IMG/VR virus record: IMGVR_UViG_3300030333_006551
Location: 65,907-129,906 of that record
DNA: 64,000 nt
Source of the DNA: a virus
Reading direction: 5' to 3' (one strand)
This document shows positions 41,823 to 63,041 of this stretch, piece after piece. The position numbers and the translations under genes are program-made. The notes beneath the pieces are model-generated. The model did not search any database. It had not been told where the DNA came from and was given only the letters and a program-made list of their open reading frames with translations. Each line of letters opens with the position of its first letter. Position 1 is the first letter of the stretch.

Positions 41823-42295
41823 GTTCGGTAGAGTCCATAGGGGACTTTGCTTTAAACTTAATTGAGCAGGAACTAGAAAGTCCCACTCCAACCTCCAGAA
41901 ATCCTTTTACTGGCGTTCAAGCAGAGAAAGGGCAAGCTGATATTAGTGACATAGAAGTCCCTAGTAACATGCGAAACCAGATTCTTAACGAATCTTTTTC
42001 TGTTGAAGCTCCACAAGAGCCAGAAGAAAAACCAGAAGTAGAAGAAATTCCTGAAATTGAGATTTCTACACCTGAAGAACCTCAAATATTGCACGAACAT
42101 GCTGCATTAGTTGAGCGTTTTGAAGGTGCAGTTAGGGAGTTAACTTCTGTTCTTCGTGAAATGACAGGCTCTGGTTTTGTTGGTGGGGAAGCAAAAACTA
42201 CAGTCGGTCGGATTTCTCCTAATTTCGCAGGTACTCCTAAAAAGTCACGAAAAAGTAGAAGGAAGGACCTCTTAAATATTTTAGGAAAAAAATGA
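41819..42295 (+). CDS. hypothetical head-module protein
   Basis: Acidic body with basic tail, ATGA-coupled. Confidence 0.65.
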   Translation: MSSVESIGDFALNLIEQELESPTPTSRNPFTGVQAEKGQADISDIEVPSNMRNQILNESFSVEAPQEPEEKPEVEEIPEIEISTPEEPQILHEHAALVERFEGAVRELTSVLREMTGSGFVGGEAKTTVGRISPNFAGTPKKSRKSRRKDLLNILGKK

Positions 42296-42687
42296 TGGAT
42301 ATCCTGGATCAAATTCTTGAAGCAAAAGGGAAAAGATACCCTTCAGGCAGAGGTAAGTACAGCACTTTAAATAAGTCAGGAAAAGCCACTGCTATGAAAT
42401 CCAAAGTTAAGGTATACGATACCTTAGAAAAGGGTGTTTGTGCAGGATATCCTGGACAAATGATGTCAACAAAAGGATCCAAGAGAATTTATGTTATTAC
42501 CAAGCAAAGGAAAAAGCAAAAGTCTCAAGTTCCCTCTTGCAGCGGTAGAGTAGCCAAAGGGTTTACCCCTGGAAGCTCTACTCCATCCTCCGAGTTTTCA
42601 AGCATCAAAGCGCATTCAGTTAGGACCATGAGAAAACACGGAAGGCAGAAGTCCAAAAAGTTCGAAAAGTATAAGGAGCACAAGTAA
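42292..42687 (+). CDS. basic head-module protein
   Basis: Lys/Arg-rich, N-terminal ILDQILEA, directly upstream of the protease. Confidence 0.65.
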   Translation: MMDILDQILEAKGKRYPSGRGKYSTLNKSGKATAMKSKVKVYDTLEKGVCAGYPGQMMSTKGSKRIYVITKQRKKQKSQVPSCSGRVAKGFTPGSSTPSSEFSSIKAHSVRTMRKHGRQKSKKFEKYKEHK

Positions 42688-42688
42688 T

Positions 42689-43936: not shown

Positions 43937-43954
43937 TTACAAAAATTAAAAAAA

Positions 43955-43977
43955 AGTTAATATAGTTTATATTAACT
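43955..43977. repeat. perfect 10-bp inverted repeat upstream of the scaffold gene
   Basis: AGTTAATATA-gtt-TATATTAACT, followed by TAAATA at 43980-43985. Confidence 0.65.
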
Positions 43978-44006
43978 AATAAATAAAGATAGAAACGGAG
44001 TTTATT

Positions 44007-44642
44007 ATGAGTAATAAAATGGAAAATCTCGCCTCTTTACTTCCTGAAAATTTAAGTGAGGAAGCACTAGAGGATATTGCGAACATCGTTGATACAGTTA
44101 TAACTGAACAGGTCAACGAAAGAGTTCAAGATTTGGAGGATAAAGTTTATTCTTTCCTTCGTCTCAAGATGGACTCAATTAAAGAACAAGCTATAAGAGA
44201 ATTAGAAGCAGAAGATGATACTTTTAAAAATGCCAAAAGCTTTGAGTACTTAAAGTCACTCATGGCTATTGAGCTTTCTGAAAGTGATAACGAGTCTGCT
44301 GTCGCTCTTGTATCGCAAGAAGCTCAAGAGATTGCTGAGGAGAATCAGCTAATCATTCATGAGCTTAACGAAGCTCTTATGGAGAATGCTAAGTTAGAAA
44401 ATACTATCAAAGTATATAATGACAAGTTAGCATTAATCGAAGAGAAAAATCAGACACTTCAGGAAAGCGTACAGCATCTTGAAGGTGTAGTAGAAAAGCC
44501 TTTCAAATCAAACGAAAGAGCTTTAGTTATATCAGAGGAAGTAGACTCTGAATCTACTACGGTTGAAACTCAAAGTAATAATGAGTTCTTAACCGAAGAT
44601 GTTATGGCGTTTATGCCTTTCAACGAAACTAGGAGAAATTAA
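44007..44642 (+). CDS. prohead core scaffold protein gp22-like
   Basis: Acidic coiled-coil protein between the protease and the major capsid gene. Confidence 0.75.
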   Translation: MSNKMENLASLLPENLSEEALEDIANIVDTVITEQVNERVQDLEDKVYSFLRLKMDSIKEQAIRELEAEDDTFKNAKSFEYLKSLMAIELSESDNESAVALVSQEAQEIAEENQLIIHELNEALMENAKLENTIKVYNDKLALIEEKNQTLQESVQHLEGVVEKPFKSNERALVISEEVDSESTTVETQSNNEFLTEDVMAFMPFNETRRN

Positions 44643-44644
44643 TT

Positions 44645-46279
44645 ATGGATATTATGCCCACAGACGGAATTAAGAATGAAGTCGTAGAAAAATGGGAACC
44701 AGTTCTTGAAGGGATAGGCGATGACTACGGAAGAAGAGTAACCGCTCAACTTCTTGAGAACCAAGCTAAGTCGATTATTTCTGAAAAACTTCAGGAAGCA
44801 GTCGATACTGGTGGTACACAAACTACCGTAGGCCGCTTAGGTACTTTCCAGAAGTTTGCTTTTCCTATTGTTCGTCGCGTTTATCCTGAACTAATCGCTA
44901 ACAATATTGTTGGCGTTCAGCCAATGCAGGGACCTGTCTCACAGATCTTCTACATTGGTAACAGTCGTGTTGACGGTGGTTCTGAGCAGCAGATCTACAA
45001 CAAGTATCAACTCACATACAGAGGCTTGACCACTAACCCAATCTTCTCACAAGGAAACTACGATATGGACCAGACTAATGGCTCATATGATGACCAGTTA
45101 GTTGTTGGGAACGCTGGATGGGCACCTTCTGCTCTTGCAGGTAGAGATCTTACTACATCTGCTCTCTTCATGAGTGCTGGTGCTAATGGTCCTTACGCTT
45201 CTGCAACCATGGGTGGTAAGATTGCTTCTTGGCCTGCCGAAGGTGATCTCGGTCGTGACGATACTGGATCGACTCGCTCTGGTCCTCACGGAATGATGGG
45301 CTTTAATGTCTCTGCTGGTGAGCGTTTGGCTGGTTCTGGTATTCCAGAAATGGTCTTCCACATCGAGCAGCAGCCTGTTGCAGCCCGTACTCGTAAGATG
45401 AGAGCCCTTTGGACTCTTGAGGCTTCTCAAGACCTTAAGGCTTATCACAACCTTGACCTTGAGCGGGAGCTTACTGACATGCTTGGTAAGGAACTTCGCC
45501 TTGAGATCGACCGTGAGCTTATCGAAGATCTTCGTATGCTTTCATACGATGTTGATGATACACTTGCAGACAAGGGATCTAAGTGGAAGAAGGCTAACCT
45601 TGATCAGGCAAATTCGAACAACTTTGTTCTTCAGCCTGACATGGCAACTAATGATCCTGCTGCTGACTTCTTGTATGATTACACTACAGGCACGGACAAT
45701 GCAGGAACCCACGAAAATGTATTCTTATACGATTTCTCAACTTCTGCTCTTGATTTTGCACCTCAGCATGTCGGTCATGTCTATGCAAACTTGCTTGCAA
45801 TGCTTAATCTTATGAGTCAGGACATCTACAAGACTACGATGCGTGGTCCTGGTAACTGGATTGTCTGCTCACCTCTAGTCGCTTCAATGCTTCACTCTGC
45901 TGCAAAGCTTGAGGGTGGTGTTGATAAGGTTGATGGTCCCACCAATGTTGGTGGTAGTAACATTGAGTACAAGGGTAAACTTGCTGGTCAGTTTGATCTT
46001 TATGTCGATCCTATGTACCCAGAAGATGAGCTTATGATGGGTTATAAGGGTGCCAATGCTATGGATTCAGGCTTTGTCTATTCTCCATACATCCCACTCC
46101 AGACTCTACCCACCATCGTTGATCCCACCGACTTCCAGCCCAGGAAGGGGATCCTCACCCGCTATGGTAAGGCAGCAGTAACCCCAGCCTCAAGATACTA
46201 TAGAATCTTGAGACTTATCGGGCCTACCGCTAACTTCCTCTTCACCCCATTCGCTAAGGTGAAAGGCGGGATGGCATAA
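44645..46279 (+). CDS. major capsid protein gp23-like
   Basis: KWEPVL, QLLENQ, VRRVYPELIA..IVGVQPM.GP, ARTRKMRA.WTLEASQDL.AYH, EIDRE, YSPYIPL, FQPRKGILTRYG. Confidence 0.96.
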   Translation: MDIMPTDGIKNEVVEKWEPVLEGIGDDYGRRVTAQLLENQAKSIISEKLQEAVDTGGTQTTVGRLGTFQKFAFPIVRRVYPELIANNIVGVQPMQGPVSQIFYIGNSRVDGGSEQQIYNKYQLTYRGLTTNPIFSQGNYDMDQTNGSYDDQLVVGNAGWAPSALAGRDLTTSALFMSAGANGPYASATMGGKIASWPAEGDLGRDDTGSTRSGPHGMMGFNVSAGERLAGSGIPEMVFHIEQQPVAARTRKMRALWTLEASQDLKAYHNLDLERELTDMLGKELRLEIDRELIEDLRMLSYDVDDTLADKGSKWKKANLDQANSNNFVLQPDMATNDPAADFLYDYTTGTDNAGTHENVFLYDFSTSALDFAPQHVGHVYANLLAMLNLMSQDIYKTTMRGPGNWIVCSPLVASMLHSAAKLEGGVDKVDGPTNVGGSNIEYKGKLAGQFDLYVDPMYPEDELMMGYKGANAMDSGFVYSPYIPLQTLPTIVDPTDFQPRKGILTRYGKAAVTPASRYYRILRLIGPTANFLFTPFAKVKGGMA

Positions 46280-46324
46280 GCCATAATGGTTGAATGATTT
46301 AGATAATAAATCATAAAGAAATAG

Positions 46325-46363
46325 AGGGGCCAGGGAAAATTACTTCCTTGGCCCTTTTTCTTT
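46325..46363 (+). terminator. rho-independent terminator after the capsid gene
   Basis: GGGCCAGGGAA...TTCCTTGGCCC stem followed by TTTTTCTTT. Confidence 0.8.
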
Positions 46364-46382
46364 GCCTATATAAAGTAGAATA

Positions 46383-46592
46383 ATGTATACATACAAAAGC
46401 TCCTGCCGATTCAGGATGTTATTATATGTTGGTGGTGAGATACTTGAGATTCGCCCTAAACAAATAATAAAAACAAAAGAAAAGCTAGATTATCCACAAT
46501 TAACTTTAATTGAGGAAAAGAAACGAGGTAGACCCAAAAAGAAGGTAGAAATAGATGGCGACAAACAAGACATTTCCAAGACCGAGGCTTAA
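46383..46592 (+). CDS. small basic hypothetical protein
   Basis: 69-aa ORF with KKRGRPKKK, preceded by CTATATAAAG. Confidence 0.6.
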   Translation: MYTYKSSCRFRMLLYVGGEILEIRPKQIIKTKEKLDYPQLTLIEEKKRGRPKKKVEIDGDKQDISKTEA

Positions 46593-47448
46593 TGGTTACG
46601 GGACAAGTTTTGGTAATAGAAATAGTTCTAAAGATTATGGCTATGACCTCCTTAACTATACCCCAGAAGGAGATATTGATCCTTCAAAACTGAATAAAAC
46701 TAAACTATCAGATGGGGTAGAGTTTTCCCCTTTTGATGAACTAGTTAAAGACTATGTTTTGGGGATGTTAGGTCATCCTATTGTTCGTGTCGAACTTACA
46801 CATTATCAATTAAAAGCGAGCATAGATGAAGCTGTTACAAAGCTAAACTATCATGCTCCATTATGGACTATGCAGTATGCAGTATTTGAAGCTTCTGCTG
46901 GTCAGAATGTATATGAACTTCCTACATATATGATTGATAATTTAAGCTATATTGTGTACAAAAAATCTTTACTTAGTATCCAATCGCAAGCAGGAACGCT
47001 TGAATTTGACTTTTTTATTAAGTATTTTCAAGAGAATTTCTTGTTTGAAAACTTTGGGGTAGGTGATTTCTACCTCCTCCAAAGTATGCTCGAAAGTACA
47101 CGAAAGATTTTAAGTCAGGAAGGCTCATATAATATTTTAAATAACCGCTATGTGCAGTTATATCCTGCTCCTGTGATGACCCCAGAACCTGTTATTATTG
47201 AGTATAGAGCATTAGATTCTAATACTATACACCCTGCTTATGTTAATTGGATTCAAAGGTATGCGTTAGCGGTAGCTAAAGGTGTATTATCACAGGTTAG
47301 AGGTAAATATGGACAGGTTCCTTCTCCTGGAGGGGGTGTCTCACTTAATGCTCAACAGTTAGCACAAGAATCAGCCGCAGAAAAGCAAGCTCTTATGGAA
47401 GAACTCACTTCGCAGATCGAAGAACCACCCGTGTTCACTACATACTAA
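46555..47448 (+). CDS. neck protein gp13-like
   Basis: YVLGMLGHPIVRVEL...IDEA, WIQRYALAVAK..L..VRGKY...PGGGVSLN. Confidence 0.88.
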   Translation: MATNKTFPRPRLNGYGTSFGNRNSSKDYGYDLLNYTPEGDIDPSKLNKTKLSDGVEFSPFDELVKDYVLGMLGHPIVRVELTHYQLKASIDEAVTKLNYHAPLWTMQYAVFEASAGQNVYELPTYMIDNLSYIVYKKSLLSIQSQAGTLEFDFFIKYFQENFLFENFGVGDFYLLQSMLESTRKILSQEGSYNILNNRYVQLYPAPVMTPEPVIIEYRALDSNTIHPAYVNWIQRYALAVAKGVLSQVRGKYGQVPSPGGGVSLNAQQLAQESAAEKQALMEELTSQIEEPPVFTTY

Positions 47449-53064: not shown

Positions 53065-55899
53065 ATGAACTATTTTACTCAATTACTAGAAAGCTACGAC
53101 AAGCTTAAAAAGCGACAGTTAAGTATTAAACTGGACGAGGTTACTGCTGCGGGTCAAGTTCCTACAGGAGATTATCAAACATTAAAAAAACAAAACCCCG
53201 AAGCGGCCAGCGAAATTGATAACCTGCTGATTAGACAGTTAGGGACCGCAGACCCTAAGGGGCCAATGCAGATGGGTACGGATATTCCCAACGCTCCTAA
53301 CCCTGATAATCCTGAAAACGGTTATGGCGTTCCTCCAGGAACAATAGCAAAGGTTGTTAAGACTACTCAAGGGGAAGGCAATCCAACAGCCATACTACCA
53401 CAGGGGCAAACCTTTATTTATTATCGAGGCTTTGGTGACGTTAAATCAGATCGCCCGATTATTAACCGATATGGTGAAGGTAATTCTCAAATATTTAGAA
53501 GATATAGAAACGCTTTAGCGGCACGGTTCGAAGGGGCAGCCCCTAAAAAGACCACTCCAGATAAACCTAAAACTCCAGAAGAAAAAGCAGAAGAGGAACG
53601 TAATAAAAAAAATGCAGAGCTTAGGCAAGAATTGGATCGTAATGCTTCGTGGGATAGAGCAGGTGGAACTTTTGAAAGGCATAGAGGTTTTAGGGATGAT
53701 GGTCCTGATGGTCTTGAGGATAAAATAAAAGAGTGGATCGGTAACGGCAAAAAGTTAGCCGAAGATTATAGAGCACGAAATCCAGAAGGTAAAGACCACT
53801 GGGCAACTGGCGGATCTAGAGCAGCTAAAGGCAGAGAAACCCAAGCAGAGCAATCATATATTACAGGAAATGCAGGTGCAAGTTTAGAAAGAAAATTCGC
53901 TCTAGCAGAAGGTATTGATATCTCGTCTGAAGCAGTATTAGATGATAAAGGAAATGAGACAGGCGAAACAGACCTAATTGTTACACCAGTCGTTTTAGCG
54001 GAGAATGATATAGTTTTAATGCGAGGCGCGGCAGAGTCTGTAAACTTCTTATTTAGAGCAGCGTTGGGTGGAAAAGATTTTCAAGACTGTGGAAAAATGT
54101 CTACCTATGTTAAAAAACGAGGTGATAGCTATGTATTTCTAGCGCGGGGTGAGACTGAGCAAGGTATGGTTATACAATCTAATCCTATGCTAGACTACGC
54201 TGCTGAAAGAGCAGTGGATAACTGCGGTGGTATGCCTATACAACAAGTACCTAAAGCTAAGTATGATCCACAAGAACTCAATGATTTTAGAGGAAAAATC
54301 AATGAAGTTGCTATAACCAGCCTGCATATAGCGGGTCTTATTCAAAATGTAAAAGACCCTAAACAAAGAAGAAAAATATTAAAAGATCATCTAGACTATA
54401 TCGCTGGTAAATTGCTTGAAGATGATTTTAAATTTAAAGCAGCCATGCAATGGTCAAAAAAGGTTGCAGCGGGGGAAGTGTCTACTGACACAGAAAGTCA
54501 AAAAATATACGAAACTCTTCAAGAGTTAGAAAAGATGACTGCGAACGATGAGCTTCTAAAAGCTTATTTTGTTTCGTTATCACGATTAGAATTGCCAGTC
54601 TTAGAAGCTCTAGAACCTGATCTTATTCTTCCAGTAGGGGTAAACACTGGACAAGGGTATGCAGATGATAATGTATATGGGTATTTAGATTCAGATGTAG
54701 TTGAAGCTAAGGTAGAGCATTTTCGTAGCAAATGTTTAGCACAGGGAGGGACAAACTGTGATCATCTTTCATTAGGGTATGAGACTACCACAATAGGTGA
54801 ACTTCGAAAACAAGGAAAAGAAGCAAAGAATATACTTTCTCATTACGAATCTGTTTATAAGTCCGAAGGAAAAACCTTAACAGATAATACTCCAGTATAC
54901 ACAATCGGATCTAGCCTAAAAAGTTATTTAAGATTTGGAGGTTATAAAGCAGGTGAAAACAATAGTTGGGAGGACCGATCTAATGTCCTTAGAGAGCAGG
55001 GAGAGGGGGCTATCCATCCCGAGATGCACCAGCAGACAAGAACAGTTTTAGGTTTAGATGCTTTAGACGATACAGGGAAACCTATTAAGGGGGCTCCTAC
55101 TTATGCTGGAGTTGTAGCGTATCAAGATAAGTTAGATGCAGATGTTAACGCGCTGAATACCGTCTTTCCAGGGGCTGAAGGCGTACAGGTAGATAAAAAA
55201 GGTAATGTAGTTCCAGGGGAGTGGAGTAATACAGGCGCTCAAACAGTATACAACAAATTAAAAAATCAGTTTTCCTACCTAGAAGGACAACAGGATAATG
55301 TTCTTAGATTATTTAAAGATGATAAGGGGTTTTGGCTTCCAATGACTCCAGAAAATCATGCATATATTAGCGAAAGAATGACACGCTTACTTACCACTGC
55401 CAGATACCACCGCGACGGCAATGAAAGAGATTCGAAAGGTAATCTTACTTTAAACGCTATTAACGCAAGAGCTAACGCAGCGTACACAATACAACTGCTG
55501 GGTGGTGCTGTAGGAGGAGGTTTTACTAATGTAAAAGATTTAGACTCTGGTACTACTTTAGTTGTTTCGCACCAAGCTCCTTTAGATGGTCCTACTAGGG
55601 GCATATTATATAATCCTGATGACTGGGATTTTGAAGGGTCAGGCAGTTCGCTTAAGATTACAAGAAGAGGTACAAAGCAATCAATATCGTTAAAAACTAC
55701 AAGAAAAACAAGATCGAACTCATATCAGACTGGTTCTGCGGTAATGGTTAGCAAGGCATTAGCTGAAGAATACTCTATGATAAATGAAGCTGTAGGTGCA
55801 ACAAATATAGATGATGGGCAAGAGTCGTTAATGTACAAGTTTATTATGGGACAGAAGCTTCTCTTAGAACAATTAGAGCAAGAATTAAGTATTAATTAG
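53065..55899 (+). CDS. large hypothetical protein, possibly head-packaged
   Basis: 944-aa ORF with N-terminal LLE/LDE motifs. TATAAT lies 8 nt upstream of the ATG. Confidence 0.7.
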   Translation: MNYFTQLLESYDKLKKRQLSIKLDEVTAAGQVPTGDYQTLKKQNPEAASEIDNLLIRQLGTADPKGPMQMGTDIPNAPNPDNPENGYGVPPGTIAKVVKTTQGEGNPTAILPQGQTFIYYRGFGDVKSDRPIINRYGEGNSQIFRRYRNALAARFEGAAPKKTTPDKPKTPEEKAEEERNKKNAELRQELDRNASWDRAGGTFERHRGFRDDGPDGLEDKIKEWIGNGKKLAEDYRARNPEGKDHWATGGSRAAKGRETQAEQSYITGNAGASLERKFALAEGIDISSEAVLDDKGNETGETDLIVTPVVLAENDIVLMRGAAESVNFLFRAALGGKDFQDCGKMSTYVKKRGDSYVFLARGETEQGMVIQSNPMLDYAAERAVDNCGGMPIQQVPKAKYDPQELNDFRGKINEVAITSLHIAGLIQNVKDPKQRRKILKDHLDYIAGKLLEDDFKFKAAMQWSKKVAAGEVSTDTESQKIYETLQELEKMTANDELLKAYFVSLSRLELPVLEALEPDLILPVGVNTGQGYADDNVYGYLDSDVVEAKVEHFRSKCLAQGGTNCDHLSLGYETTTIGELRKQGKEAKNILSHYESVYKSEGKTLTDNTPVYTIGSSLKSYLRFGGYKAGENNSWEDRSNVLREQGEGAIHPEMHQQTRTVLGLDALDDTGKPIKGAPTYAGVVAYQDKLDADVNALNTVFPGAEGVQVDKKGNVVPGEWSNTGAQTVYNKLKNQFSYLEGQQDNVLRLFKDDKGFWLPMTPENHAYISERMTRLLTTARYHRDGNERDSKGNLTLNAINARANAAYTIQLLGGAVGGGFTNVKDLDSGTTLVVSHQAPLDGPTRGILYNPDDWDFEGSGSSLKITRRGTKQSISLKTTRKTRSNSYQTGSAVMVSKALAEEYSMINEAVGATNIDDGQESLMYKFIMGQKLLLEQLEQELSIN

Positions 55900-56423
55900 A
55901 TCCAAATATCGTCGTTTAAAAGTAGATCTTCTAGTAGGTACATAGAATAATTATTATATTCTTTATTACTTTTTCTAGTTAGATCTATTTTTTTTATATC
56001 AATATTAAATGTATTAGAGCGTACAATAGCTATTATTTTTTGCCTATCTTGTTGAAATATCACTAACGGCTCTTTATTACATCGTTTAGAATCTTTTTCA
56101 CATTGGTCTATAAATTTCCATAGCTCAGACCTTTTATTGAATAGACTATATATATTTTCTTTGTTATATCCTTTTTTGCATTCAATACAGAATTTAAAGT
56201 CTTTAGGAGTTATTAAATCTCCATAAATTTTTAGGTGATCTGGGATATTATGGGTTGTGGCAAACGCACCAGAGCCAGGAGAACGGCTAAACTCTTTTGT
56301 GTCGAATTTATTATTTAGCATTGTTGCTATCTTTCGTTCAAAAGAATGCCCCTTATTCCTACTGTTAACCTTTTTAGGTTTTTTAGTTTTTGTTAGTTTT
56401 GCTACATCAAAATTATCTTTCAT
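55896..56423 (-). CDS. Holliday junction resolvase, Hjc-like PD-(D/E)XK
   Basis: NSRNKGHSFERKIA, RSPGSGA, GDLITP, IECKKG. Confidence 0.8.
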   Translation of the reverse strand: MKDNFDVAKLTKTKKPKKVNSRNKGHSFERKIATMLNNKFDTKEFSRSPGSGAFATTHNIPDHLKIYGDLITPKDFKFCIECKKGYNKENIYSLFNKRSELWKFIDQCEKDSKRCNKEPLVIFQQDRQKIIAIVRSNTFNIDIKKIDLTRKSNKEYNNYSMYLLEDLLLNDDIWI

Positions 56424-56452: not shown

Positions 56453-56809
56453 ATGGATAAAACAAAAGAAGTAGCGATAGATATCAATTTATCCGATTGG
56501 TCAATCAAATTAAAAGAGAGGACTAGATCCCGAATGAAACTACAAATTAAACTAAACCAGATAGAAGCTCAAGCGTTTAAAAATTTCGCTGAGGTTGTGA
56601 AGCCTGACGAAATCTCTGACGAAGACTTCCTTAAAAGTATCTTCAAAATGGGCTTAGAGACTATGGAGTCTAAGCTAATGAGCGCAGTGGAAAAACACGC
56701 GGAAGAGAATAACATTGATCTAGAATCACTGCGAGACGAGGCAGGCTATGATTCTATTGAGGAACTGGTTGCTGAATCTGCAAAAGCAGATGGTACTGAT
56801 GAAAACTAA
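56453..56809 (+). CDS. hypothetical protein
   Basis: ATG 56453 after AGGA (the track start at 56390 overlaps the resolvase). Confidence 0.65.
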   Translation: MDKTKEVAIDINLSDWSIKLKERTRSRMKLQIKLNQIEAQAFKNFAEVVKPDEISDEDFLKSIFKMGLETMESKLMSAVEKHAEENNIDLESLRDEAGYDSIEELVAESAKADGTDEN

Positions 56810-57149
56810 GACTAAAAAAATTAAGTCAGATTATTACCTGACATTCCTGAAAAAGGAAAACGATCTCAACAAGATTCTGAAAGCCCATAAAAAAGATCCA
56901 AGGAAACTTAAAATTCTATTCGTTTCTTTGTGGGACGATTACTGCACTGAACTTGTTGATTCTTTAAAGAAACAGGAAGTTAACTCTTCCAAGAAGCAGC
57001 CACTGTATATTGTAGACAGTTTCCATATGCCTCACTCTTTTGTTATATACAAAACAAACAAGGTTCCGCAACTTGTAAAAATAGACAAGCATAAAGTCTA
57101 TACTGAGGACTACTTGCCGAAAATATATGAGACCTTAGGGATCGAGTAG
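56799..57149 (+). CDS. thioredoxin-fold-like protein with degenerate active site (WDDYC)
   Basis: ILFVSLWDDYC..L, YIVD, KVPQLV resemble Trx F-x-x-x-WCxxC and cis-Pro motifs. Confidence 0.5.
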   Translation: MKTKTKKIKSDYYLTFLKKENDLNKILKAHKKDPRKLKILFVSLWDDYCTELVDSLKKQEVNSSKKQPLYIVDSFHMPHSFVIYKTNKVPQLVKIDKHKVYTEDYLPKIYETLGIE

Positions 57150-57479
57150 ATCTTTTTTTAGATCAATGTAATTGTTGATCTTCTCAGTATATTTTTTATC
57201 CTTTGTGTATAAAAGCTTCAAATTGTTCAGTATAATAGTTGTGAAGTAATTAAATGCACTTCCGTTTTCTTTATTGAAGTTTTTTAATGTTTTTAATATT
57301 ATTAGAAAACATTCCTGCTTCGCATCATCGAAGTCTAGCTTAAATGAAAATGAATTAATTATGTTCCCGATAAGGATATCGAACATAGCAAATAATTCAT
57401 CCTCAGACTCAGCAGGACTTTCCTGATAAGCTTTAATTAGCTCCTCGAAGCGTTTGTTATCTATATAATGGGTTTTCAT
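57135..57479 (-). CDS. late-transcription sigma factor, T4 gp55-like (short)
   Basis: HYIDNKRF, DDAKQEC, NFN....SAFNYFTTII.N. Confidence 0.8.
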   Translation of the reverse strand: MKTHYIDNKRFEELIKAYQESPAESEDELFAMFDILIGNIINSFSFKLDFDDAKQECFLIILKTLKNFNKENGSAFNYFTTIILNNLKLLYTKDKKYTEKINNYIDLKKDLLDP

Positions 57480-57494
57480 TACTATATCATAGTA
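57480..57494. promoter_or_regulatory. palindromic divergent spacer/promoter between the gp55-like gene and polymerase part 1
   Basis: TACTAT-atc-ATAGTA. Only 14 bp separate the two ATGs. Confidence 0.55.
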
Positions 57495-58507
57495 TGCGTA
57501 ATCTCTATAGTTTATATAACTCTACTAATACCAACGATTTATGCTCTGGTTGTACCATTTTAGATAAAGAAAAACCGAGTTATAGCATCACAGACTATGA
57601 TTCCCTAGATAAAAACGATGTTCTGTTTTTATCAGATTCTTTTTATCACAGGTTTGGGAAGCCGATGGCCTTTTCTAAGCAAGAGAAGGAACTAATTAAT
57701 GCTTGCTTTGATCATGACGCTTCTTTTTCTGCGTCTATCAAGTGCCCGTCTGTAAAGGAGGCTGATATGTCTCCTGATAACATGAAGTTATGTAGACAGC
57801 ACTTAGATTTAACGATACAAAAGGTAAAGCCTATATTAGTATTTACCTGTGGAAACCTTGCAATGAAGATGCTAATTAAAAAAAGTGGCATCACTGATAA
57901 AAGGGGAAGATCATATGATTATACAACTGATGAAGGACATTCTTGTGTTGTTGTTCCTATCTTTCATCCTTATTCTGTGGTTAAAGAACCTCGGCATAGG
58001 CTTCTCTTCGAAACGGACATTAGGAATGCGTATGAAAAGTATGTCCTCGAAAAGAAGCATGAAGGGAAGCTCCAATACAAAGTCCTAACGGATATTCAGG
58101 AAGTAATTAGTTTAGCTCAAGATCTAAAGGATACTGAAGAGACTTTGGCTATGGACATAGAAACCACAGGTCTTAACTTCCTTAAAGATAGCATCCAAAC
58201 AATAGCCATCTCATCCAGAGAGACGAACTGGGTAATCCCTTGCGATCATAAGGACTCACCATTCAGAAAGGGAGAGCCCCACTATGAGAAGATGTGGATA
58301 AATCTCAGAGCCATACTAGAGAACCCAAAGAACAAGAAGGTATTTCACAATGCCAAGTTTGATCTAAAATTCCTGATCAATTACGGAATTTACACTAAGA
58401 ATGTGTGGGATACTAAGATTATGCATCACTTCTTGGATGAGAACCTACCTAAGAGCTTGATGGACTTGGTGAAGTTATACTTTCCTACCGAGTTGGAGAG
58501 TCTTTAG
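57494..58507 (+). CDS. DNA polymerase A part 1: family-4 UDG-like Fe-S domain plus 3'-5' exonuclease motifs I and II
   Basis: CSGC...KCP...LCRQHL...VKP....CGNLA...PIFHP, then MDIETTGL (ExoI), FHNAKFD (ExoII), WDTKIMHHFLDE. Confidence 0.85.
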   Translation: MRNLYSLYNSTNTNDLCSGCTILDKEKPSYSITDYDSLDKNDVLFLSDSFYHRFGKPMAFSKQEKELINACFDHDASFSASIKCPSVKEADMSPDNMKLCRQHLDLTIQKVKPILVFTCGNLAMKMLIKKSGITDKRGRSYDYTTDEGHSCVVVPIFHPYSVVKEPRHRLLFETDIRNAYEKYVLEKKHEGKLQYKVLTDIQEVISLAQDLKDTEETLAMDIETTGLNFLKDSIQTIAISSRETNWVIPCDHKDSPFRKGEPHYEKMWINLRAILENPKNKKVFHNAKFDLKFLINYGIYTKNVWDTKIMHHFLDENLPKSLMDLVKLYFPTELESL

Positions 58508-58913
58508 GGGATACTAGCTTTTTTAAAGATGCTTTTAGCATTGTTAATCTTCTTTGGTTAGATCTGGTTAACATACTTCCTGCTTCTTTGTTACGAAGTC
58601 TTGCTCTTTGTACTGGGCGGGATTCATCTTTTGGGTTGTCGGCTACAAGCATTTCAAAAAGTTTATTGTATGAGGTAATACCTAAACTTCTTGACGCAAT
58701 TTGCTGTCCGTATTTTCTTTGTTGTGACGCGACTCTTTGAATTGGGCCTTGTCTAGATGCTTTTCTTTGCAATTCTCTTTTAGCTCTTTGTTGAGTAATA
58801 GGTGCAATACCCTGCCCTCTTTCTATATTTCCGCGCCTTGCTAAAGATGTTTGGACTTTTGTTCTAGATCTTTGTTGCTGGATAGGGCTTAATCTTTCGA
58901 ATAATTTACTCAT
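58485..58913 (-). CDS. basic Gln/Arg-rich hypothetical protein lying antisense within the polymerase locus
   Basis: 142-aa ORF filling the gap between polymerase parts 1 and 2. KLFE occurs twice. Purine-rich coding bias on the minus strand. Confidence 0.65.
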   Translation of the reverse strand: MSKLFERLSPIQQQRSRTKVQTSLARRGNIERGQGIAPITQQRAKRELQRKASRQGPIQRVASQQRKYGQQIASRSLGITSYNKLFEMLVADNPKDESRPVQRARLRNKEAGSMLTRSNQRRLTMLKASLKKLVSPKDSPTR

Positions 58914-58957
58914 AATCTTAACCTATAATTGGGCGTATGCCTCTGTAATATGTAGCC

Positions 58958-59437
58958 ATGCTAACCGTAACAAACCCTAAAACTTTCGATTGGTCTTCGA
59001 TGTCTTTATCAGATTGCTGTGAGGGCAATGCGGCTGATGCATATTTTACTTTGAAACTTTTTGATATAGTTTCAAACAAGTTAGAGGAAAATGGCTGCCT
59101 TGCCTTTGTGGAGCAAATTTTACCTGAGGCGTTAGATGTTTTTTCTGACATGGAGTATGAAGGTTTGCAGGTTAGTGAAGCAAAGTTAAAGGAGTTAGAT
59201 AGGGAGTTGTCTAACCTTATTGTGAACCAAGAGGACGATCTGTATTCTTACCCACAGGTGGTAAACACAGACAACCTTGCGTCCAACAATGATTTAACTG
59301 AAATATTTTATACCCGAGAGGGAGGTTTTGAGCTTTACCCTCCTGACAAGACTGGAAGTGGAAAGCCTTCAGTCTCCGCTCCAACCCTTAAGCTATTACT
59401 CGAACAAATTAACTCTGAATTAAGTAGAAGATCATGA
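58958..59437 (+). CDS. DNA polymerase A part 2: ExoIII region and N-terminal thumb
   Basis: GNAADAYFTLKL (ExoIII-like), DMEYEGLQV, NLASNNDL.EIFY, KTGSGKPSVS. Confidence 0.85.
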   Translation: MLTVTNPKTFDWSSMSLSDCCEGNAADAYFTLKLFDIVSNKLEENGCLAFVEQILPEALDVFSDMEYEGLQVSEAKLKELDRELSNLIVNQEDDLYSYPQVVNTDNLASNNDLTEIFYTREGGFELYPPDKTGSGKPSVSAPTLKLLLEQINSELSRRS

Positions 59438-60519
59438 GTTCAAAGTGGCAATACAGAGAAGAAGGAAAGAAGATCAGTAAGAGGGTCATCAAAGATAAAT
59501 CAACTGAGGATCTTCGTTCTGCTTCAAAATTTATTTCTGATCTATTAAGTCTTAGAAAGATCCAGAAACTACAGAAGACGTATATCCTGGGCACGAAGAA
59601 GGCCATTGATTACAATGGAAGGAGCAAGGTCTATGTAGACTACAGGCTTGACGGTACTGCAACTGGGAGGCTCTCCTGCGCTGCGTACAACGCGCAGAAA
59701 CCTATGGGCGTTTCCTTTCATACTCTTCCCCGTGACACTGATACAAACATTCGGAGCATGTTTACTGCAAGTCATGACTCTCATTTTGTAACTGTAGACT
59801 ATGCAGCCATGGAGTTGCGAGTTCTTGCTCATGTGGCTAAAGAGAAAAGTATGCAGCATGCGTTCAATTCTGGCGCAGACCTGCATACATACACGGCAAA
59901 GCTATTGTTTGGGAAGGATGATATTTCGAAACGGGAGCGACAGATTGCGAAGACGGTTTCCTTCTTAATTGTTTACGGTGGAGGCGCGTTTAACTTAGCT
60001 GAAACAATGTCCATACCTATGGACAGAGCGGAGAAGATAATTAAGAACTATCAAAGGGTCTACCCTGGAGTTTTTAGGTACATGGACCATGTAAATGAAT
60101 TTATACGGGAAAATGGTTATGCATATTCTATCTTTGGTAGGAGAAGAAACTTACCTGATGTTTACTCCCGTGACAGGTCGGTAGTTAACAGAGCCTTAAG
60201 ACAGGGCCTAAACTTTACTATCCAAAGTACAGCGTCTGATATTCTTCTTTGCGGTTTATTAGGTGTTGCTAGGAGGTTTAAGGAGAACAACTTAAAAGCT
60301 AAACCTGTTGCAACTGTTCATGATAGTGTGGAGGTAGTGTGTCCCAAAGATGAGTTGGATGTTGTTCTTTCAATCATACATGATGAGTTGGTTAATTATC
60401 CGACTATTAAGAAGTTATTCGGTATCGAGTTTGCCGTACCCCTAAATATAGATGTTGAAGTGGGAACTAGCTTTGGCGATGGAAAAGAGGTTGAGTTTGA
60501 AAACATTATTACTGACTGA
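59434..60519 (+). CDS. polA: DNA polymerase A part 3: C-terminal thumb, palm and fingers
   Basis: RKIQKLQKTY, GTATGRLS, motif A DYAAMELR, motif B RQIAKTVSFLIVYG, FGRRR, NFTIQSTASD, motif C TVHDS. Confidence 0.92.
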   Translation: MSSKWQYREEGKKISKRVIKDKSTEDLRSASKFISDLLSLRKIQKLQKTYILGTKKAIDYNGRSKVYVDYRLDGTATGRLSCAAYNAQKPMGVSFHTLPRDTDTNIRSMFTASHDSHFVTVDYAAMELRVLAHVAKEKSMQHAFNSGADLHTYTAKLLFGKDDISKRERQIAKTVSFLIVYGGGAFNLAETMSIPMDRAEKIIKNYQRVYPGVFRYMDHVNEFIRENGYAYSIFGRRRNLPDVYSRDRSVVNRALRQGLNFTIQSTASDILLCGLLGVARRFKENNLKAKPVATVHDSVEVVCPKDELDVVLSIIHDELVNYPTIKKLFGIEFAVPLNIDVEVGTSFGDGKEVEFENIITD

Positions 60520-61465
60520 TTTACATTTAACACATAAGCCTATAGGGTTACTAGACGCACAGAAAGAATGTATTTTAAAAATATTTGAGAAGGAAAAACC
60601 TGACGAGGTTATTATAATGGGAGACCTCGTAATGGTTAGGCGACCTCAACCAGTGGTCCTCTCTGCGCTCCACGATATAATCAAAACCATAAGTTTGCAT
60701 TGTCCTATGGTTTTGATTCGAGGGAATCATGATAGTGATAATAGATCCGATGATGGGTTAACAATATTATCTCTATTCGAATCAGACAATGTACAAGTTG
60801 TTACACAAACTACCCATGATTATGATAAAAAACGAACCTACATCCCACACTACGAAGATCAAGACAGGATTAAAAACATTCTACTTACTGTCCCAAAAGA
60901 TCATAGCGTCTTTGGGCATTTTGGTTACGACGGTTGCCTTAACTCCGCTGGTGATGCTGATTTCGGGATTACTCTTGCTACTTTTAGGAACCGCACTTAT
61001 TTGGGGCATATTCATAGATTCAAACAATCAGAATTAGTAACAATCTTAGGGACTCCGTATAGCACTAACTTTGGAGAAAGTCGGAAAGTAAACTATTATG
61101 CAACCATAGAGGATGGCGAAACAAAGTACCATGAGGTAACTTTTGGGCCTAGGTATCTTGTTGTAGATAAGTCTGAAGTAGAGTTTTGTCTAGATGATAT
61201 TAATAATCCTGATTACTACACTCTTTTACGGGTTAACCTATCCTCAGGAGAAACTCAACCAGTCACAGATGAGCTAGATGTTGCTTCTGTAGAGTTTAAG
61301 TTTAAACCCGCTTTTGATGAGGAGATGCTTTCTGATTACAAACCTAAGCGAGACTTGTTTACCTTGAATGAAGTGATTTTAGAAGACTATATTGATGCTG
61401 CCCATACTGATTTACCTAAGGAGGATATTTTGGAGGGGCTTCGACTAATTCGAGATGAACATTAA
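60497..61465 (+). CDS. Mre11/SbcD-like nuclease (gp47-like)
   Basis: TDLH, MGDL, RGNHD, FGH, LGHIH, GTPY. TTG start at 60497 after GAGG. Confidence 0.9.
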   Translation: MKTLLLTDLHLTHKPIGLLDAQKECILKIFEKEKPDEVIIMGDLVMVRRPQPVVLSALHDIIKTISLHCPMVLIRGNHDSDNRSDDGLTILSLFESDNVQVVTQTTHDYDKKRTYIPHYEDQDRIKNILLTVPKDHSVFGHFGYDGCLNSAGDADFGITLATFRNRTYLGHIHRFKQSELVTILGTPYSTNFGESRKVNYYATIEDGETKYHEVTFGPRYLVVDKSEVEFCLDDINNPDYYTLLRVNLSSGETQPVTDELDVASVEFKFKPAFDEEMLSDYKPKRDLFTLNEVILEDYIDAAHTDLPKEDILEGLRLIRDEH

Positions 61466-63041
61466 GAAAGTAAGAATTCAGAACTTTTATTCCTTTAAGA
61501 ACGCCACTTTAAACTTTTCCAAATCAAAAGGTATTGTCCTCATTGATGGGTATAATTATGATACTAAAGGTTCTAATGGAGCAGGAAAAAGCGTCCTGAT
61601 TGAATCCATTTATTTTGGTCTAACGGGTAAAACTATTAGAAAAAGTACCGATGAAGCTTTAGTTAATAATCAGGAAAAAAAGAAGTGTCAAGTTGAGGTG
61701 TTCCTAGATGACGGTGTTAGGATTTTACGCCAAAAAAAGCCCACAAAATTGAAGCTTTTTATTGATGGGGAGGACAAAACACAGCACACTATATTCGATA
61801 CACAAACCCTAATTGACGAGCGTTACAAAACAAATTATAAAGTTTTATTAGCCTCTATGTTTTTTGGACAATCGAATGATTTGAACTTTTTAGATTGTTC
61901 TGCTGAAGATAAGCGAAATATTATAAAGCATTTCTTAGCTCTTGATGAAATTTTTGTTATGAGGGATAGAATTAAGTCTCATAAGGCTGGTTTTTATCAA
62001 GAAATGAAGGAGCAAGATTCCTTAATAGATGAGCATAAGAGAACAATTTCCGAGTTCGATAAAAAGATCACCCAACTTCAAAAAGCAAAAGAAGAGTTTG
62101 CAAGCTACGACGAAGAGATTCTATCCTTATCTTTAGATGAAATTCTAGACCTAGAAGAGGCCGAGTCTTCCAGAGCTTGGCAGTTGACGAATACACAACA
62201 GGACATAGATAAATCTACGAAAAAGATTGAAGAGTTAGAGAAAGAGTCTCGCAAAGCACCCCAGAAGATTACTTGTGAGTGGTGTGGTGATTTAGTTGAG
62301 AAGAAGGTGAACAAAGAGGCGTTAAGTGATGAAATTAAGTTTCACCAAAAGCAACGAGAACTGCTTCAAGAGGAAATCTACGACCTAGAGGATGCTGAGG
62401 TTTATATTCCAATTTCATCCAAAGAGTTTAGTAAAGTACTAGCCTTTAAAGAGTTATGTAGGGATGAGACTAATTACGCCGAACTAATTCAAAGTTTCAA
62501 TGAAAAGATTGCTGAAGCCAGCAAAGTGAAGGCTGGTAATAAAGTTAATTATGAAGTAATGCGTTTTTGGGAAAAAGCCTTCTCCCAGCAAGGCATAATT
62601 AAGTATATAATTAAAAATGTATTAGACTATTTGAACGACAGGATCAATTATTACTTGTCATTTTTAACTAATTCAAAGTATATGTTAAAATTTAACGAAG
62701 AATTAATCGAAGAAATTCATACTAACGGACAACGAGTGCAATATATATCATTGTCAGGAGGCGAACGACGAAAGGTTAATTTAGCAGTCACGCTTTCCCT
62801 TAAAGATCTTTTACTTTTAACGGACAAAACACAACCAAATTTACTATTTTTTGATGAAATAGCTGAGAATTTGGATGAAGAAGGTATAACAGGGCTCTAC
62901 GGACTACTTCAAGAGATTAAGGAAAATAAAAAAGTTTTTGTTATCACTCACAATAGTCACCTAAAGTCCCTATTATATTCCTCTAAGAAAATTACTGTTA
63001 CAAAAAAGAAAGGTGTGTCTGACATCAAAGGAAGAAAATGA
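61455..63041 (+). CDS. Rad50/SbcC-like ATPase (gp46-like)
   Basis: NFYSF, Walker A GSNGAGKS, zinc hook CEWC, signature LSGGE, Walker B FFDE, ITH. Confidence 0.92.
   Translation: MNIKKVRIQNFYSFKNATLNFSKSKGIVLIDGYNYDTKGSNGAGKSVLIESIYFGLTGKTIRKSTDEALVNNQEKKKCQVEVFLDDGVRILRQKKPTKLKLFIDGEDKTQHTIFDTQTLIDERYKTNYKVLLASMFFGQSNDLNFLDCSAEDKRNIIKHFLALDEIFVMRDRIKSHKAGFYQEMKEQDSLIDEHKRTISEFDKKITQLQKAKEEFASYDEEILSLSLDEILDLEEAESSRAWQLTNTQQDIDKSTKKIEELEKESRKAPQKITCEWCGDLVEKKVNKEALSDEIKFHQKQRELLQEEIYDLEDAEVYIPISSKEFSKVLAFKELCRDETNYAELIQSFNEKIAEASKVKAGNKVNYEVMRFWEKAFSQQGIIKYIIKNVLDYLNDRINYYLSFLTNSKYMLKFNEELIEEIHTNGQRVQYISLSGGERRKVNLAVTLSLKDLLLLTDKTQPNLLFFDEIAENLDEEGITGLYGLLQEIKENKKVFVITHNSHLKSLLYSSKKITVTKKKGVSDIKGRK

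Follow-up and report, generated by a model that had tools for sequence, protein, structure and literature searches.

In the window, the 64,000-nucleotide stretch of an uncultured marine tailed phage analyzed here, the family A DNA polymerase (PolA) is encoded as three separate genes, an arrangement that recurs in dozens of related contigs. Three collinear open reading frames on the plus strand (57494-60519) jointly make up one UDG-like/exonuclease/polymerase PolA, with a further ORF in antisense orientation between the first and second (Table 1). Parts 1, 2, and 3 are collinear on the phrog_17 profile (positions 499-785, 807-926, and 931-1239, respectively), so they represent one polymerase in three pieces. 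All of these ORFs were found as described in a first-pass annotation of the locus, as were the ATGA-coupled start of part 3 and the in-frame TAG three codons 5′ of its ATG (59425-59427). Parts 1 and 2 share a common reading frame, with 453 nt between them and 12 stops in that frame. This polymerase is the sole DNA polymerase detected in the phage, whose structural genes are T4-like.

Table 1. Genes, catalytic motifs, and junction elements of the three-gene polymerase locus (coordinates of the window)
Feature	Position	Strand	Remarks
Part 1	57494-58507	+	ORF, 337 aa; ends ...YFPTELESL*, stop TAG
Asp221 and Glu223 of part 1 (ExoI carboxylates, MDIETTG)	58154-58162	+	Invariant in alignment; lines up with DxE of DEDD nucleases
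ExoII carboxylate Asp290 of part 1 (NAKFDLKFL)	58361-58363	+	Invariant in the same part 1 alignment
Antisense ORF	58485-58913	-	ORF, 142 aa, Gln/Arg/Lys-rich, between parts 1 and 2
Junction box TATGTAGCC + ATG, family form TAT(A/G)TAGnnATG	58949-58960		Abuts the part 2 start codon, 2 nt before ATG
Part 2	58958-59437	+	ORF, 159 aa; ends ...LLLEQINSELSRRS, stop TGA
ExoIII motif GNAAD of part 2, Gly23-Asp27	59024-59038	+	Residue-by-residue alignment to Klenow
Part 2 stop/part 3 start overlap ATGA	59434-59437	+	Translational coupling
Part 3	59434-60519	+	ORF, 361 aa; start in the ATGA overlap
Catalytic Asp122 of part 3 (motif A)	59797-59799	+	Invariant; aligned to Bst motif A Asp
His296-Asp297 of part 3 (motif C)	60319-60324	+	Invariant; aligned to Bst VHDE

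Domain analysis assigned complementary portions of a polymerase to the three proteins. Part 1 matched the exonuclease family PF01612 with 70.7 bits (cutoff 23.6) over residues 197-333, covering only profile positions 3-131 of 173; the rest of that domain aligns to part 2 via Klenow. Its score against the Pfam UDG profile (24.0 bits) lies just below the cutoff of 24.3, and residues 65-184 matched the PDB UDG structure 4zbx with an E value of 8.1e-8. Judged by these matches, part 1 comprises a putative family-4 UDG-like domain followed by the first four fifths or so of a DEDD 3′-5′ exonuclease domain, with the ExoI (MDIETTG) and ExoII motifs. The alignment in which Asp221, Glu223, and Asp290 are conserved takes in rows at 30-34% identity.

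The profile of part 2 aligned with residues 161-292 of the Klenow chain (E value, 1.9e-4), which points to an ExoIII helix that completes the exonuclease fold, followed by the thumb base and tip. Clustering at 90% identity gave 467 clusters in which part 2 is a stand-alone protein, almost always of 159 aa, and a search with little power for longer proteins containing it found none. Gly23, Asn24, Ala25, and Asp27 are invariant in 21/21 aligned rows. Asp27 lines up with the ExoIII Asp of Klenow and supplies the fourth carboxylate, and all four metal-binding carboxylates (D, E, D, D) are present: D221, E223, and D290 in part 1 and D27 in part 2. The first-pass view that part 2 resumes with the ExoIII helix holds with one correction: the position of the Klenow ExoIII tyrosine (Y-x3-D) is taken by the invariant Gly23, giving the motif GNAxD. 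Because of this replacement, proofreading activity of the composite site is not assured.

Part 3 scored 266.6 bits against PF00476 (cutoff 34.3; profile positions 52-380 of 381) and matched the Bst, Taq, and Klenow chains with E values of 2e-44 to 2e-39, its residue 37 aligning with Klenow chain residue 304. Its Lys-rich N-terminal tail of ~36 aa is followed by thumb helix I and then by the palm and fingers, which carry motifs A, B, and C; these motifs had been placed here, with intact catalytic Asp residues, from the outset. The motif A Asp (D122), the motif B Arg/Lys (R169 and K173), and the motif C His-Asp (H296 and D297) are invariant in 24/24 aligned rows. The motif C His-Asp is followed by Ser, where Bst has Glu.

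Klenow alignments place the two breaks inside the exonuclease domain and at the thumb tip, as originally proposed. Assuming that Klenow residue numbers equal the chain numbers plus 323, break 1 falls just upstream of residue ~484, between ExoII and ExoIII, and break 2 between residues ~615 and 627; neither is at the exonuclease/polymerase domain boundary. Unaligned residues number ~4 and 9 at the two sides of break 1 and ~14 (part 2) and 36 (part 3) at break 2.

Both breakpoints recur in a comparison set of 80 related loci from IMG/VR, which encode 57 distinct part 2 proteins; both sides of break 1 are present in 76 of these loci. A stop at the homologous place and a part 2 ATG were found in 76/76 loci, with part 1 tails of the form F..EL..L, and all three stop codons are in use (TAA in 58, TAG in 16, and TGA in 2). 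Part 2 starts with ATG, and has a stop separate from the part 3 start, in 80/80 loci. The part 2/part 3 overlap measures 8 nt with a GTG start in 52 loci, 4 nt in 21, and 1 nt in 2; our script placed the part 3 start 26-29 nt back in four loci, and one locus carries a 585-nt insert. Between the window and the related locus L003, dN/dS values for parts 1 to 3 were 0.081, 0.029, and 0.009 (dS 0.25-0.37), indicative of strongly purifying selection on each polymerase piece. An independently obtained contig of 53.7 kb, from run X5, covers 57420-60600 without gaps.

The two breaks differ in age. Among the best 42 representatives from an exhaustive part 3 search, none was longer than 563 aa: 24 were stand-alone part 3 proteins (349-392 aa), nine were fusions of parts 2 and 3 (480-563 aa), and nine were short fragments. 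All nine fusions begin with MLT, MLS, or VLT, as part 2 does, and in the four loci retrieved from this wider family (4/4; L014-L017), part 1 ends at the same place. The ExoII/ExoIII break is thus common to more distant phages (31-45% identity) in which parts 2 and 3 are fused, and it is the older one. The thumb break, which lies in a variable lysine-rich loop at the thumb tip, is scattered on a quick, unfinished tree and was probably made or healed more than once.

The first junction varies in gene content. Part 1 neighbors part 2 in every locus; in 39/76 loci the two are joined by a 1-nt stop/start overlap with no insert and are translationally coupled, and in the other 37 they are separated by inserts of 274-2403 nt, comprising an antisense cassette in 32 and other inserts in five. 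The antisense ORF of the window overlaps the end of part 1 by its last 23 nt, has no Pfam or PHROG family match, has only two close homologues (95% and 85% identity), and gave a dN/dS of 0.31 against L003. Gene content of the antisense cassettes falls into at least three unrelated types. Ten inserted ORFs from relatives gave no match to a nuclease family, a single match to DUF6445, and a single match to a PHROG of unknown function; Pfam and PHROG searches revealed no recombinase or nuclease gene in any cassette, and no conserved sequence was found at the insert end far from the box. An antisense gene inside the exonuclease domain had been presented as part of the arrangement; it is there in the window but is absent from 39/76 related junctions, and on this comparison it belongs to an optional cassette and is no constant component of the system. 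The first junction serves as a landing site for extra genes, here an antisense gene for a basic protein, and where the polymerase genes abut, the overlapping stop and start codons couple their translation.

The box preceding part 2 tracks one class of insert. Its family form occurs in 32/32 loci with a minus-strand cassette (23/23 distinct junctions) and in 0/44 others, namely, 39 loci with no insert and five with other inserts. Its spacing to the part 2 ATG is fixed, whereas its distance to the antisense start varies. Of the two -10-like boxes attributed earlier to part 2, TATAAT (58924-58929) and TAATAT (58946-58951, 6 nt before the ATG), both are present, but the first is not conserved in relatives, and the ATG-adjacent box is conserved only with the antisense cassette. 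The box matches TATAAT poorly in many loci and is nearly unique in the genome, not a genome-wide motif; a consensus scan called no sigma-70-type promoter at the junction. A TATAAT-like box lies 4-8 nt before the ATG of 11 other genes of this genome, with a Shine-Dalgarno match in 0/11 versus 69/147 overall. We infer that the box acts as a local promoter of the -10 type, serving a leaderless mRNA of parts 2 and 3, the divergent antisense gene, or both. Expression would thereby resume at parts 2 and 3, probably from a near-leaderless mRNA, and the same element may drive the antisense cassette in the opposite direction.

It is possible, if unlikely, that the box has no promoter role and instead marks the conserved boundary of a cassette that can move or be exchanged, for example a recombination or targeting site left by one ancestral insertion. 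Occurrence solely with antisense cassettes, whatever their unrelated contents, would fit this account, as would near-uniqueness in the genome and the negative promoter scan. It sits poorly with a spacing that is held to the part 2 ATG and not to the antisense start, with the unconserved opposite end of the inserts, with cassettes devoid of recombinase or nuclease genes, and with the 11 similar boxes before genes that have no Shine-Dalgarno match. An extended version of the promoter reading, which we hold to be doubtful, makes the break 1 junction of an obligately split replicase a promoter-equipped landing pad. Exchangeable antisense cassettes would arrive with, or be retained next to, a compact box working in both directions, from which parts 2 and 3 would be re-expressed as a leaderless mRNA and the cassette driven the other way, so that cassette carriage would uncouple the proofreading half in part 1 from the polymerase half. 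If this were true, phages could vary subunit ratios, and possibly fidelity, between strains or infection stages.

Collectively, the polymerase is very probably built from three separately translated proteins in a non-covalent assembly. Part 1 would bring the UDG-like domain and the larger share of the proofreading domain, including three of the four metal-binding carboxylates; part 2 would supply the last exonuclease helix with the fourth carboxylate, plus most of the thumb; and part 3 would supply the remaining thumb, the palm, and the fingers. With the domains split in this way, the proofreading site and the thumb would each be formed by two chains. A predicted three-chain model scored 0.91 in three runs, compared with 0.61 for the best of three controls (part 3 replaced); the mark used for such models was reached by 58/80 solved complexes and 2/110 mismatched pairs. 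Contacts agreed by at least 95% between runs, with a partner pLDDT of at least 87, and joined residues 20-35 of part 2 to residues 217-226 and 283-292 of part 1, and residues 141-158 of part 2 to residues 7-47 of part 3. The N-terminal 45 residues of part 2 do not form an independent fold and, in the model, pack into part 1. The model passes its controls, a result that may rest on likeness to solved single-chain PolAs. Conserved breaks, purifying selection, the 3 + 1 division of the carboxylates, and the model all support the first-pass proposal of separate chains with a proofreading site assembled in trans, and we infer both assembly and activity on these grounds.

A polymerase made of parts 2 and 3 alone, working without proofreading, is very unlikely. 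Here, part 1 would be a separate UDG-like/nuclease accessory, or the composite exonuclease site would be dead, in keeping with Gly23 in place of the ExoIII tyrosine, with the sub-cutoff UDG-like domain, and with antisense cassettes that uncouple parts 1 and 2 in about half of the relatives. Yet the four exonuclease carboxylates are invariant, in part 1 down to 30-34% identity; the first 45 residues of part 2 are predicted to pack against part 1; and the two genes stay adjacent in every locus and coupled in 39/76. Furthermore, PolAs need the exonuclease domain for stability even if it is inactive, according to PMC10201439.

Restoration of a single chain by a self-splicing intron, translational bypass, a programmed frameshift, or split-intein trans-splicing is largely refuted, and we regard it as highly improbable. 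The idea draws on the common frame of parts 1 and 2 in the window, on the intron-interrupted polymerase genes of the nearest named relatives (e.g., Bacillus phage W.Ph., with an endonuclease gene between polymerase pieces), and on gap RNA that folds slightly better than shuffled sequences (z = -2.24). The shared frame, for which splicing or bypass had at first to be considered, is real, but it is a coincidence, since gap lengths in relatives vary from 274 to 2403 nt and many are not multiples of three. The common frame itself holds 12 stops, and the 39/76 gapless junctions still keep a stop and an ATG. The reading frame of part 3 with respect to that of part 2 also varies (8-nt versus 4-nt or 1-nt overlaps), so no single frameshift could serve all relatives, and in L016 and L093 part 2 is separated from part 3 by inserted genes. 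No Rfam family matched at E values up to 10 over 56500-61500, and none of the four proteins had a Hint or intein match in Pfam at E values up to 0.1, in line with the earlier remark that intein and group I intron signatures are missing. No consistent frameshift or nuclease gene was found at the locus. The ~4 and 9 or ~14 and 36 unaligned residues at the break termini would be too few for intein halves.

A decaying pseudogene or assembly artefact, for which the presence of stops and nothing more would speak, has a negligible probability and is rejected by the same structure in 80 independently assembled loci, the gap-free contig of another run, dN/dS values of 0.009-0.081, and invariant catalytic residues.

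Natural splitting of PolA was first reported in 2023, and only at the domain boundary (PMC10201439). That report describes the split exonuclease and polymerase genes of S-SBP1-like T7-like cyanophages (Czernecki et al. 2023), named "clade B" in PMC12695635. As in the three-gene polymerase, the genes are adjacent and have no splicing element, and a non-covalent complex is argued from a predicted complex (PMC10201439). PMC10201439 describes one cut, at the exonuclease/polymerase boundary, in T7-like podoviruses, and calls it recent, whereas here two cuts both fall inside structural units. Unlike the form presented there, the present system has a putative UDG-like domain, T4-like structural genes, and an exonuclease cut shared down to ~31-45% identity.

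In their predicted domain order, a putative N-terminal family-4 UDG-like domain followed by exonuclease and polymerase domains, the three pieces resemble the polymerases of UDG-PolA phages and of Herelleviridae such as Bacillus phage HonestAbe. The best named matches are indeed polymerases of this group (31-35% identity for part 3 and 25-32% for part 1). UDG-PolA polymerases are single chains in SPO1, SP-10, SP-15, YerA41, and N4-like cluster 17, as given in PMC10201439 and PMC13697223. Such relatives have a single chain (1033 aa in HonestAbe) or are intron-interrupted with endonuclease genes (W.Ph.), in contrast to the three genes found here.

Split enzymes of other phages offer further parallels. 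The nrdA gene of Aeromonas phage Aeh1 is cut in two genes, and the active enzyme is reassembled without splicing (Crona et al. 2010, PMC3045599); there too, an essential replication-related enzyme is in pieces with a foreign gene between them. The Aeh1 break tails are interaction domains, and the ~14 + 36 extra residues at our thumb break are in contact in the model, but break 1 is almost without extra residues. The Aeh1 insert is the mobile endonuclease mobE (PMC3045599), whereas no nuclease family was recognized in the antisense ORF or in 10/10 inserted ORFs of relatives. 'Fractured genes' (Dassa et al. 2009, PMC2677866) likewise involve a broken DNA synthesis gene of environmental phages and a second gene lying in the gap, but the split inteins and free-standing endonuclease described for them were both missing here. 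OM43 phages MEP401 and MEP402 are marine as well and have a divided polymerase gene whose gap holds a small ORF that matches no known family, which their authors left open as a possible intron (PMC10580990). They are relatives of Zobellviridae with two pieces, a different lineage from the three-piece PolA. The N- and C-terminal pieces of the PhiKZ polymerase come from separate genes and form an experimentally proven stable complex (preprint 10.64898/2026.09.30.755723); that enzyme is a two-piece family B polymerase of a different phage group, unlike the three-piece family A enzyme here. Among the published split PolAs, we found none with these breakpoints.

Family A polymerases are textbook single-chain polymerases. 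The usual form, with exonuclease and polymerase in one polypeptide, is replaced here by three ORFs whose stops and starts are conserved in 76/76 and 80/80 loci. Genome annotation should not treat the 159-aa and ~360-aa pieces as pseudogenes or as truncated polymerases. For enzymologists, the breaks offer natural permissive split sites for PolA engineering, and the family lends itself to testing how gene fission within a domain reaches fixation. The first junction, where cassettes are optional and the box accompanies every antisense one, may provide a compact, countable example of expression repair after insertion into an essential operon. Over long divergence, this widespread lineage of marine phages has retained cuts within two structural units, with a proofreading active site predicted to be shared between two chains and a thumb that two chains would close.

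Three genes in the window together make one family A DNA polymerase (PolA) with a UDG-like domain, and the first-pass annotation had described these genes (parts 1, 2 and 3), with a minus-strand gene in the part 1/part 2 junction, just as they are recovered here. The window is the second half of the 129,906-bp virus record and carries T4-like structural genes (major head protein, head protease, baseplate wedge, sheath and tube); the four ORFs are flanked by a sigma-factor-like gene on one side and SbcD/SbcC-like genes on the other. A single phage polymerase profile takes all three parts in succession, with part 1 covering the first three quarters of the PolA-type 3'-5' exonuclease model (profile 3-131 of 173) and part 3 matching the family A polymerase model. 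The antisense ORF matched no family in Pfam or PHROG.

Features of the split polymerase locus in window coordinates
Feature	Position	Strand	Length	Basis
Sigma-factor-like gene	57135-57479	-	114 aa	phrog_351, E 4.8e-6
Part 1	57494-58507	+	337 aa	ORF
UDG-like domain of part 1	57494-58050			24.0 bits, just below the Pfam UDG cutoff of 24.3
Antisense ORF	58485-58913	-	142 aa	ORF
Terminator-like hairpin	58597-58624	+	10 pairs	consensus match
Part 2	58958-59437	+	159 aa	ORF
Part 3	59434-60519	+	361 aa	ORF

Several further features accompany the locus. The sigma-factor-like gene is divergent from part 1, with 14 nt (57480-57493) between the start codons, and this gene pair is retained in the distant loci L014-L017. 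The UDG-like domain matches a solved family-4 UDG at E 8e-8, and its near-N-terminal cysteines are missing in two of these distant relatives, L014 and L015. The terminator-like hairpin has a T-rich tail and lies about 90 nt past the part 1 stop, within the antisense gene; as a consensus match, of a type found 6 times in the region versus 2.1 expected, it could mark the end of the part 1 transcript.

We located the two breaks by alignment to Klenow fragment and Taq. The part 2 profile aligned to Klenow chain residues 161-292, or Pol I residues 484-615 if the chain offset is 323, as we take it to be, with Gly23 and Asp27 of part 2 falling at the ExoIII tyrosine and aspartate positions, respectively. 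This alignment ends in the thumb-tip stretch (…GsPSvSaptL… versus …GaPStSeevL…), and residues 37 and 13 of part 3 correspond to Klenow chain residue 304 and Taq residue 508. Because of these alignments, the part 1/part 2 break (cut 1) is assigned to the interval between the second and third exonuclease motifs, and the part 2/part 3 break (cut 2) to the thumb tip, immediately ahead of the long thumb helix. Next to no residues are unaligned on both sides of cut 1; at cut 2, the stretch lacking a Klenow counterpart comprises about 14 residues in part 2 and 36, rich in lysine, in part 3.

The catalytic aspartates, described as intact in the first-pass annotation, are indeed invariant across our alignments, together with the other exonuclease and polymerase residues followed (exonuclease carboxylates D221, E223 and D290 in part 1 and D27 in part 2; D122, R169, K173, H296 and D297 in part 3). 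An invariant Gly-Asn stands in place of the ExoIII tyrosine. On the single-chain UDG-PolA of Bacillus phage HonestAbe (L001, 1033 aa), residues 98-311 are matched by part 1, and part 2 has its sole ExoIII-like counterpart around residue 465, in a weak alignment (E 3.7). If that alignment holds, the cut of this lineage would fall where Herelleviridae have about 150 additional residues.

Using the part 2 profile, we fetched 80 related IMG/VR loci, some of which repeat ten relatives fetched earlier, and measured both junctions by script; the set contains 57 distinct part 2 proteins. Homologues share the breakpoints described in the first-pass annotation. Of the 80 loci, 76 include both sides of cut 1, and in each of these the stop follows a homologous tail (F..EL..L). 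In 80/80 loci, part 2 starts with ATG and ends in a stop of its own, and part 3 has its own start.

Artefact, pseudogene and splicing can all be rejected as explanations of the three-gene split. Splicing or bypass, raised earlier on the ground that parts 1 and 2 lie in the same frame, runs into 12 stops in that frame, and an Rfam search at E up to 10 returned four chance-level matches to unrelated families and no intron; nor did the proteins match any intein or Hint family in Pfam, in agreement with the earlier impression that intron and intein signatures are missing. The gap RNA folds mildly better than its shuffles (z -2.24), which we did not count as structure. Joining parts 2 and 3 by a single frameshift is precluded since their relative frame differs among relatives, with overlaps of 8, 4 or 1 nt and a part 3 start codon that is GTG in 54 loci, ATG in 25 and TTG in 1. 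Neutral evolution, which the first-pass annotation had named as a possible refutation, is contradicted by dN/dS values of 0.081, 0.029 and 0.009 for parts 1, 2 and 3 when the window is compared with L003, its closest relative (dS 0.25-0.37). Assembly error, named alongside it, is countered by the recurrence of the split in 80 loci and by a 53.7-kb contig from another sequencing run that spans 57420-60600 gap-free; coverage of this stretch by contigs of runs X3 and X4 is partial, and contigs of relatives from two metagenome runs follow the sequence as far as 58497-58500, diverging from there on, around the part 1 stop. Stop-codon reassignment is rejected, as all three stops are in use at both junctions, and their use after part 1 (TAA 58, TAG 16, TGA 2) means that no stop codon is read through.

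The split form is widespread, part 2 occurring as a free-standing protein of about 159 aa in 467 clusters at 90% identity from marine metagenomes. In an exhaustive part 3 search, none of the best 42 representatives exceeded 563 aa: 24 are stand-alone proteins beginning where that of the window does, 9 are of 480-563 aa and 9 are short fragments, and after these 42 come ordinary full-length Pol I proteins at about 35% identity. All nine proteins of 480-563 aa are fusions of parts 2 and 3 and begin MLT, MLS or VLT, like part 2. No longer protein containing part 2 was found at E 0.001, which is weak evidence by the search's own rating, and a locus search with the fused protein P0175 found no relative.

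Among the wider-family loci fetched, parts 2 and 3 are fused in L014, L015 and L017, and L016 has three pieces, its part 3 being 42% identical. All four nonetheless encode a part 1 of 330-333 aa that ends at the homologous place, beside the same sigma-like gene. Because the part 1 end is conserved in every one of them, fused forms included, these comparisons mark the exonuclease cut as the older, family-wide one. A quick tree of the part 3 region, omitting the 9 short fragments and all but 6 full-length Pol I proteins, intersperses fused and cut forms, and its well-supported branches force at least three changes. On this quick tree only, repeated fission or fusion at the thumb is likely.

The antisense gene is not a constant feature of the split polymerase locus. 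Junction 1 is without an insert in 39 of 76 loci (26 of 54 without repeats), the part 1 stop and part 2 ATG overlapping by one base, and inserts of 274-2403 nt occupy the other 37, the longest open frame lying on the minus strand in 30. Their contents are of at least three unrelated kinds: the Gln/Arg-rich protein of the window; loosely related basic proteins with an NSYDRIYxLLxE module, sometimes repeated; and a lipoprotein-like protein. In a few junctions a small plus-strand ORF, stop/start-coupled to part 2, is found instead. No nuclease family was detected in 10 inserted ORFs scanned from relatives or in that of the window.

The very basic minus-strand proteins of six relatives (L005, L006, L007, L009, L011 and L012) carry the module …G(I/V)xDNTNSYDRIYxLLxE, which is repeated inside the long ORFs of L011 and with which the short ORFs start; they have no match in Pfam or PHROG. 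The product of the lipoprotein-like cassette (L004 4985-5539 and L010 5001-5516, both minus strand, and 486-nt inserts in several other loci) is about 161-184 aa long, with a signal-peptide/lipobox-like start (…LMLMLAGC…), a Gly/Ala-rich middle, a hydrophobic stretch and no family match. The thumb junction too can take inserts: L016 has a 189-aa DUF6445 gene between parts 2 and 3 (4435-5004, plus strand; PHROG label 'minor coat protein'), and L093 a 585-nt insert.

The antisense protein of the window has two close homologues only, and its dN/dS of 0.31 indicates a constraint weaker than that on parts 1-3 yet real. It has a short motif, …GITSYNKLFEMLV…, in common with the NSYDRIYxLLxE module. 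Homology to the basic-protein family of those six relatives is unsupported, an HMM of that family giving the antisense protein E 0.096 in a set of 16.

A short box, TAT(A/G)TAGnnATG, whose final ATG starts part 2, accompanies the antisense cassette in 32 of 32 loci (23 of 23 distinct junctions) and is missing from all 39 junctions without an insert, all 5 with other inserts and the four wider-family loci. It is nearly unique in the whole genome and is not repeated in the window (allowing 3 mismatches, 6 matches versus 3.2 expected). Its spacing to the part 2 ATG is fixed and its distance to the antisense start variable. A scan for sigma-70 consensus promoters was negative at the junction.

Elsewhere in the genome, 11 genes are preceded by a TATAAT-like hexamer at 4-8 nt from the ATG (for example at window 53065, 55896-56423 on the minus strand, and 32448). 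Shine-Dalgarno matches occur in 0 of these 11 versus 69 of 147 genes overall, and the 11 may form a class with leaderless or near-leaderless mRNAs. Outside the window, a minus-strand gene block at about 41,800-47,000 of the genome, with GC-richer upstream regions and several starts embedded in TATAATG, is unlike the remaining genome and may be a foreign island. Because of the cassette link, the fixed ATG spacing and the hexamer-bearing genes without Shine-Dalgarno matches, we infer that the box is a -10-type element. In this reading, where an antisense unit has severed their link to part 1, expression of parts 2 and 3 would resume at the box, from a near-leaderless mRNA. The opposite strand of the box (…TATAT(T/A)…) could serve the cassette as well.

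We predicted a three-chain complex from residues 186-337 of part 1 together with parts 2 and 3, scoring part 2 as the partner and supplying a custom alignment for each chain. The best control scored 0.61 and the model 0.91 in three runs. Of 80 solved complexes 58 reach that mark, and of 110 mismatched pairs 2 do; since single-chain PolA structures have been solved, this pass shows likeness to them, not binding of these chains. Runs agreed in at least 95% of contacts, with a partner pLDDT of at least 87. In the model, the part 2 ExoIII helix (residues 20-35) packs onto the part 1 strands that bear ExoI and ExoII, and the part 2 tail (residues 141-158) against the first 47 residues of part 3. 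The latter predicted contact fits the earlier suggestion of docking segments at the thumb break.

No DNA-level similarity to named phages was detected, and part 2 gave two weak matches only among them. Among named phages, the polymerases closest in sequence are those of Herelleviridae and Gordonia phages, which share 31-35% identity with part 3 and are single-chain or intron-interrupted. The first split PolAs reported, in 2023, are those of S-SBP1-like T7-like cyanophages, which are cut once, where the exonuclease and polymerase domains meet, and for which a complex has been predicted (PMC10201439). In OM43 phages the polymerase comes in two pieces, separated by a small ORF of no known family (PMC10580990), and known UDG-PolA fusions are single chains (PMC10201439, PMC13697223). 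'Fractured genes' with split inteins (PMC2677866) are excluded as an identity by the negative intein/Hint test. The closest mechanistic precedent is Aeh1 nrdA, which is cut by mobE and reassembled via terminal tails (PMC3045599).

Neither a three-piece PolA nor a cut between ExoII and ExoIII was found in the literature covered, which is incomplete. The earlier reading, a PolA of three chains that would assemble its proofreading site in trans, is supported, with corrections that include the optional antisense gene and the missing ExoIII tyrosine. The comparative evidence documents the three-piece polymerase well as a naturally split PolA, a kind of enzyme that is in itself known.
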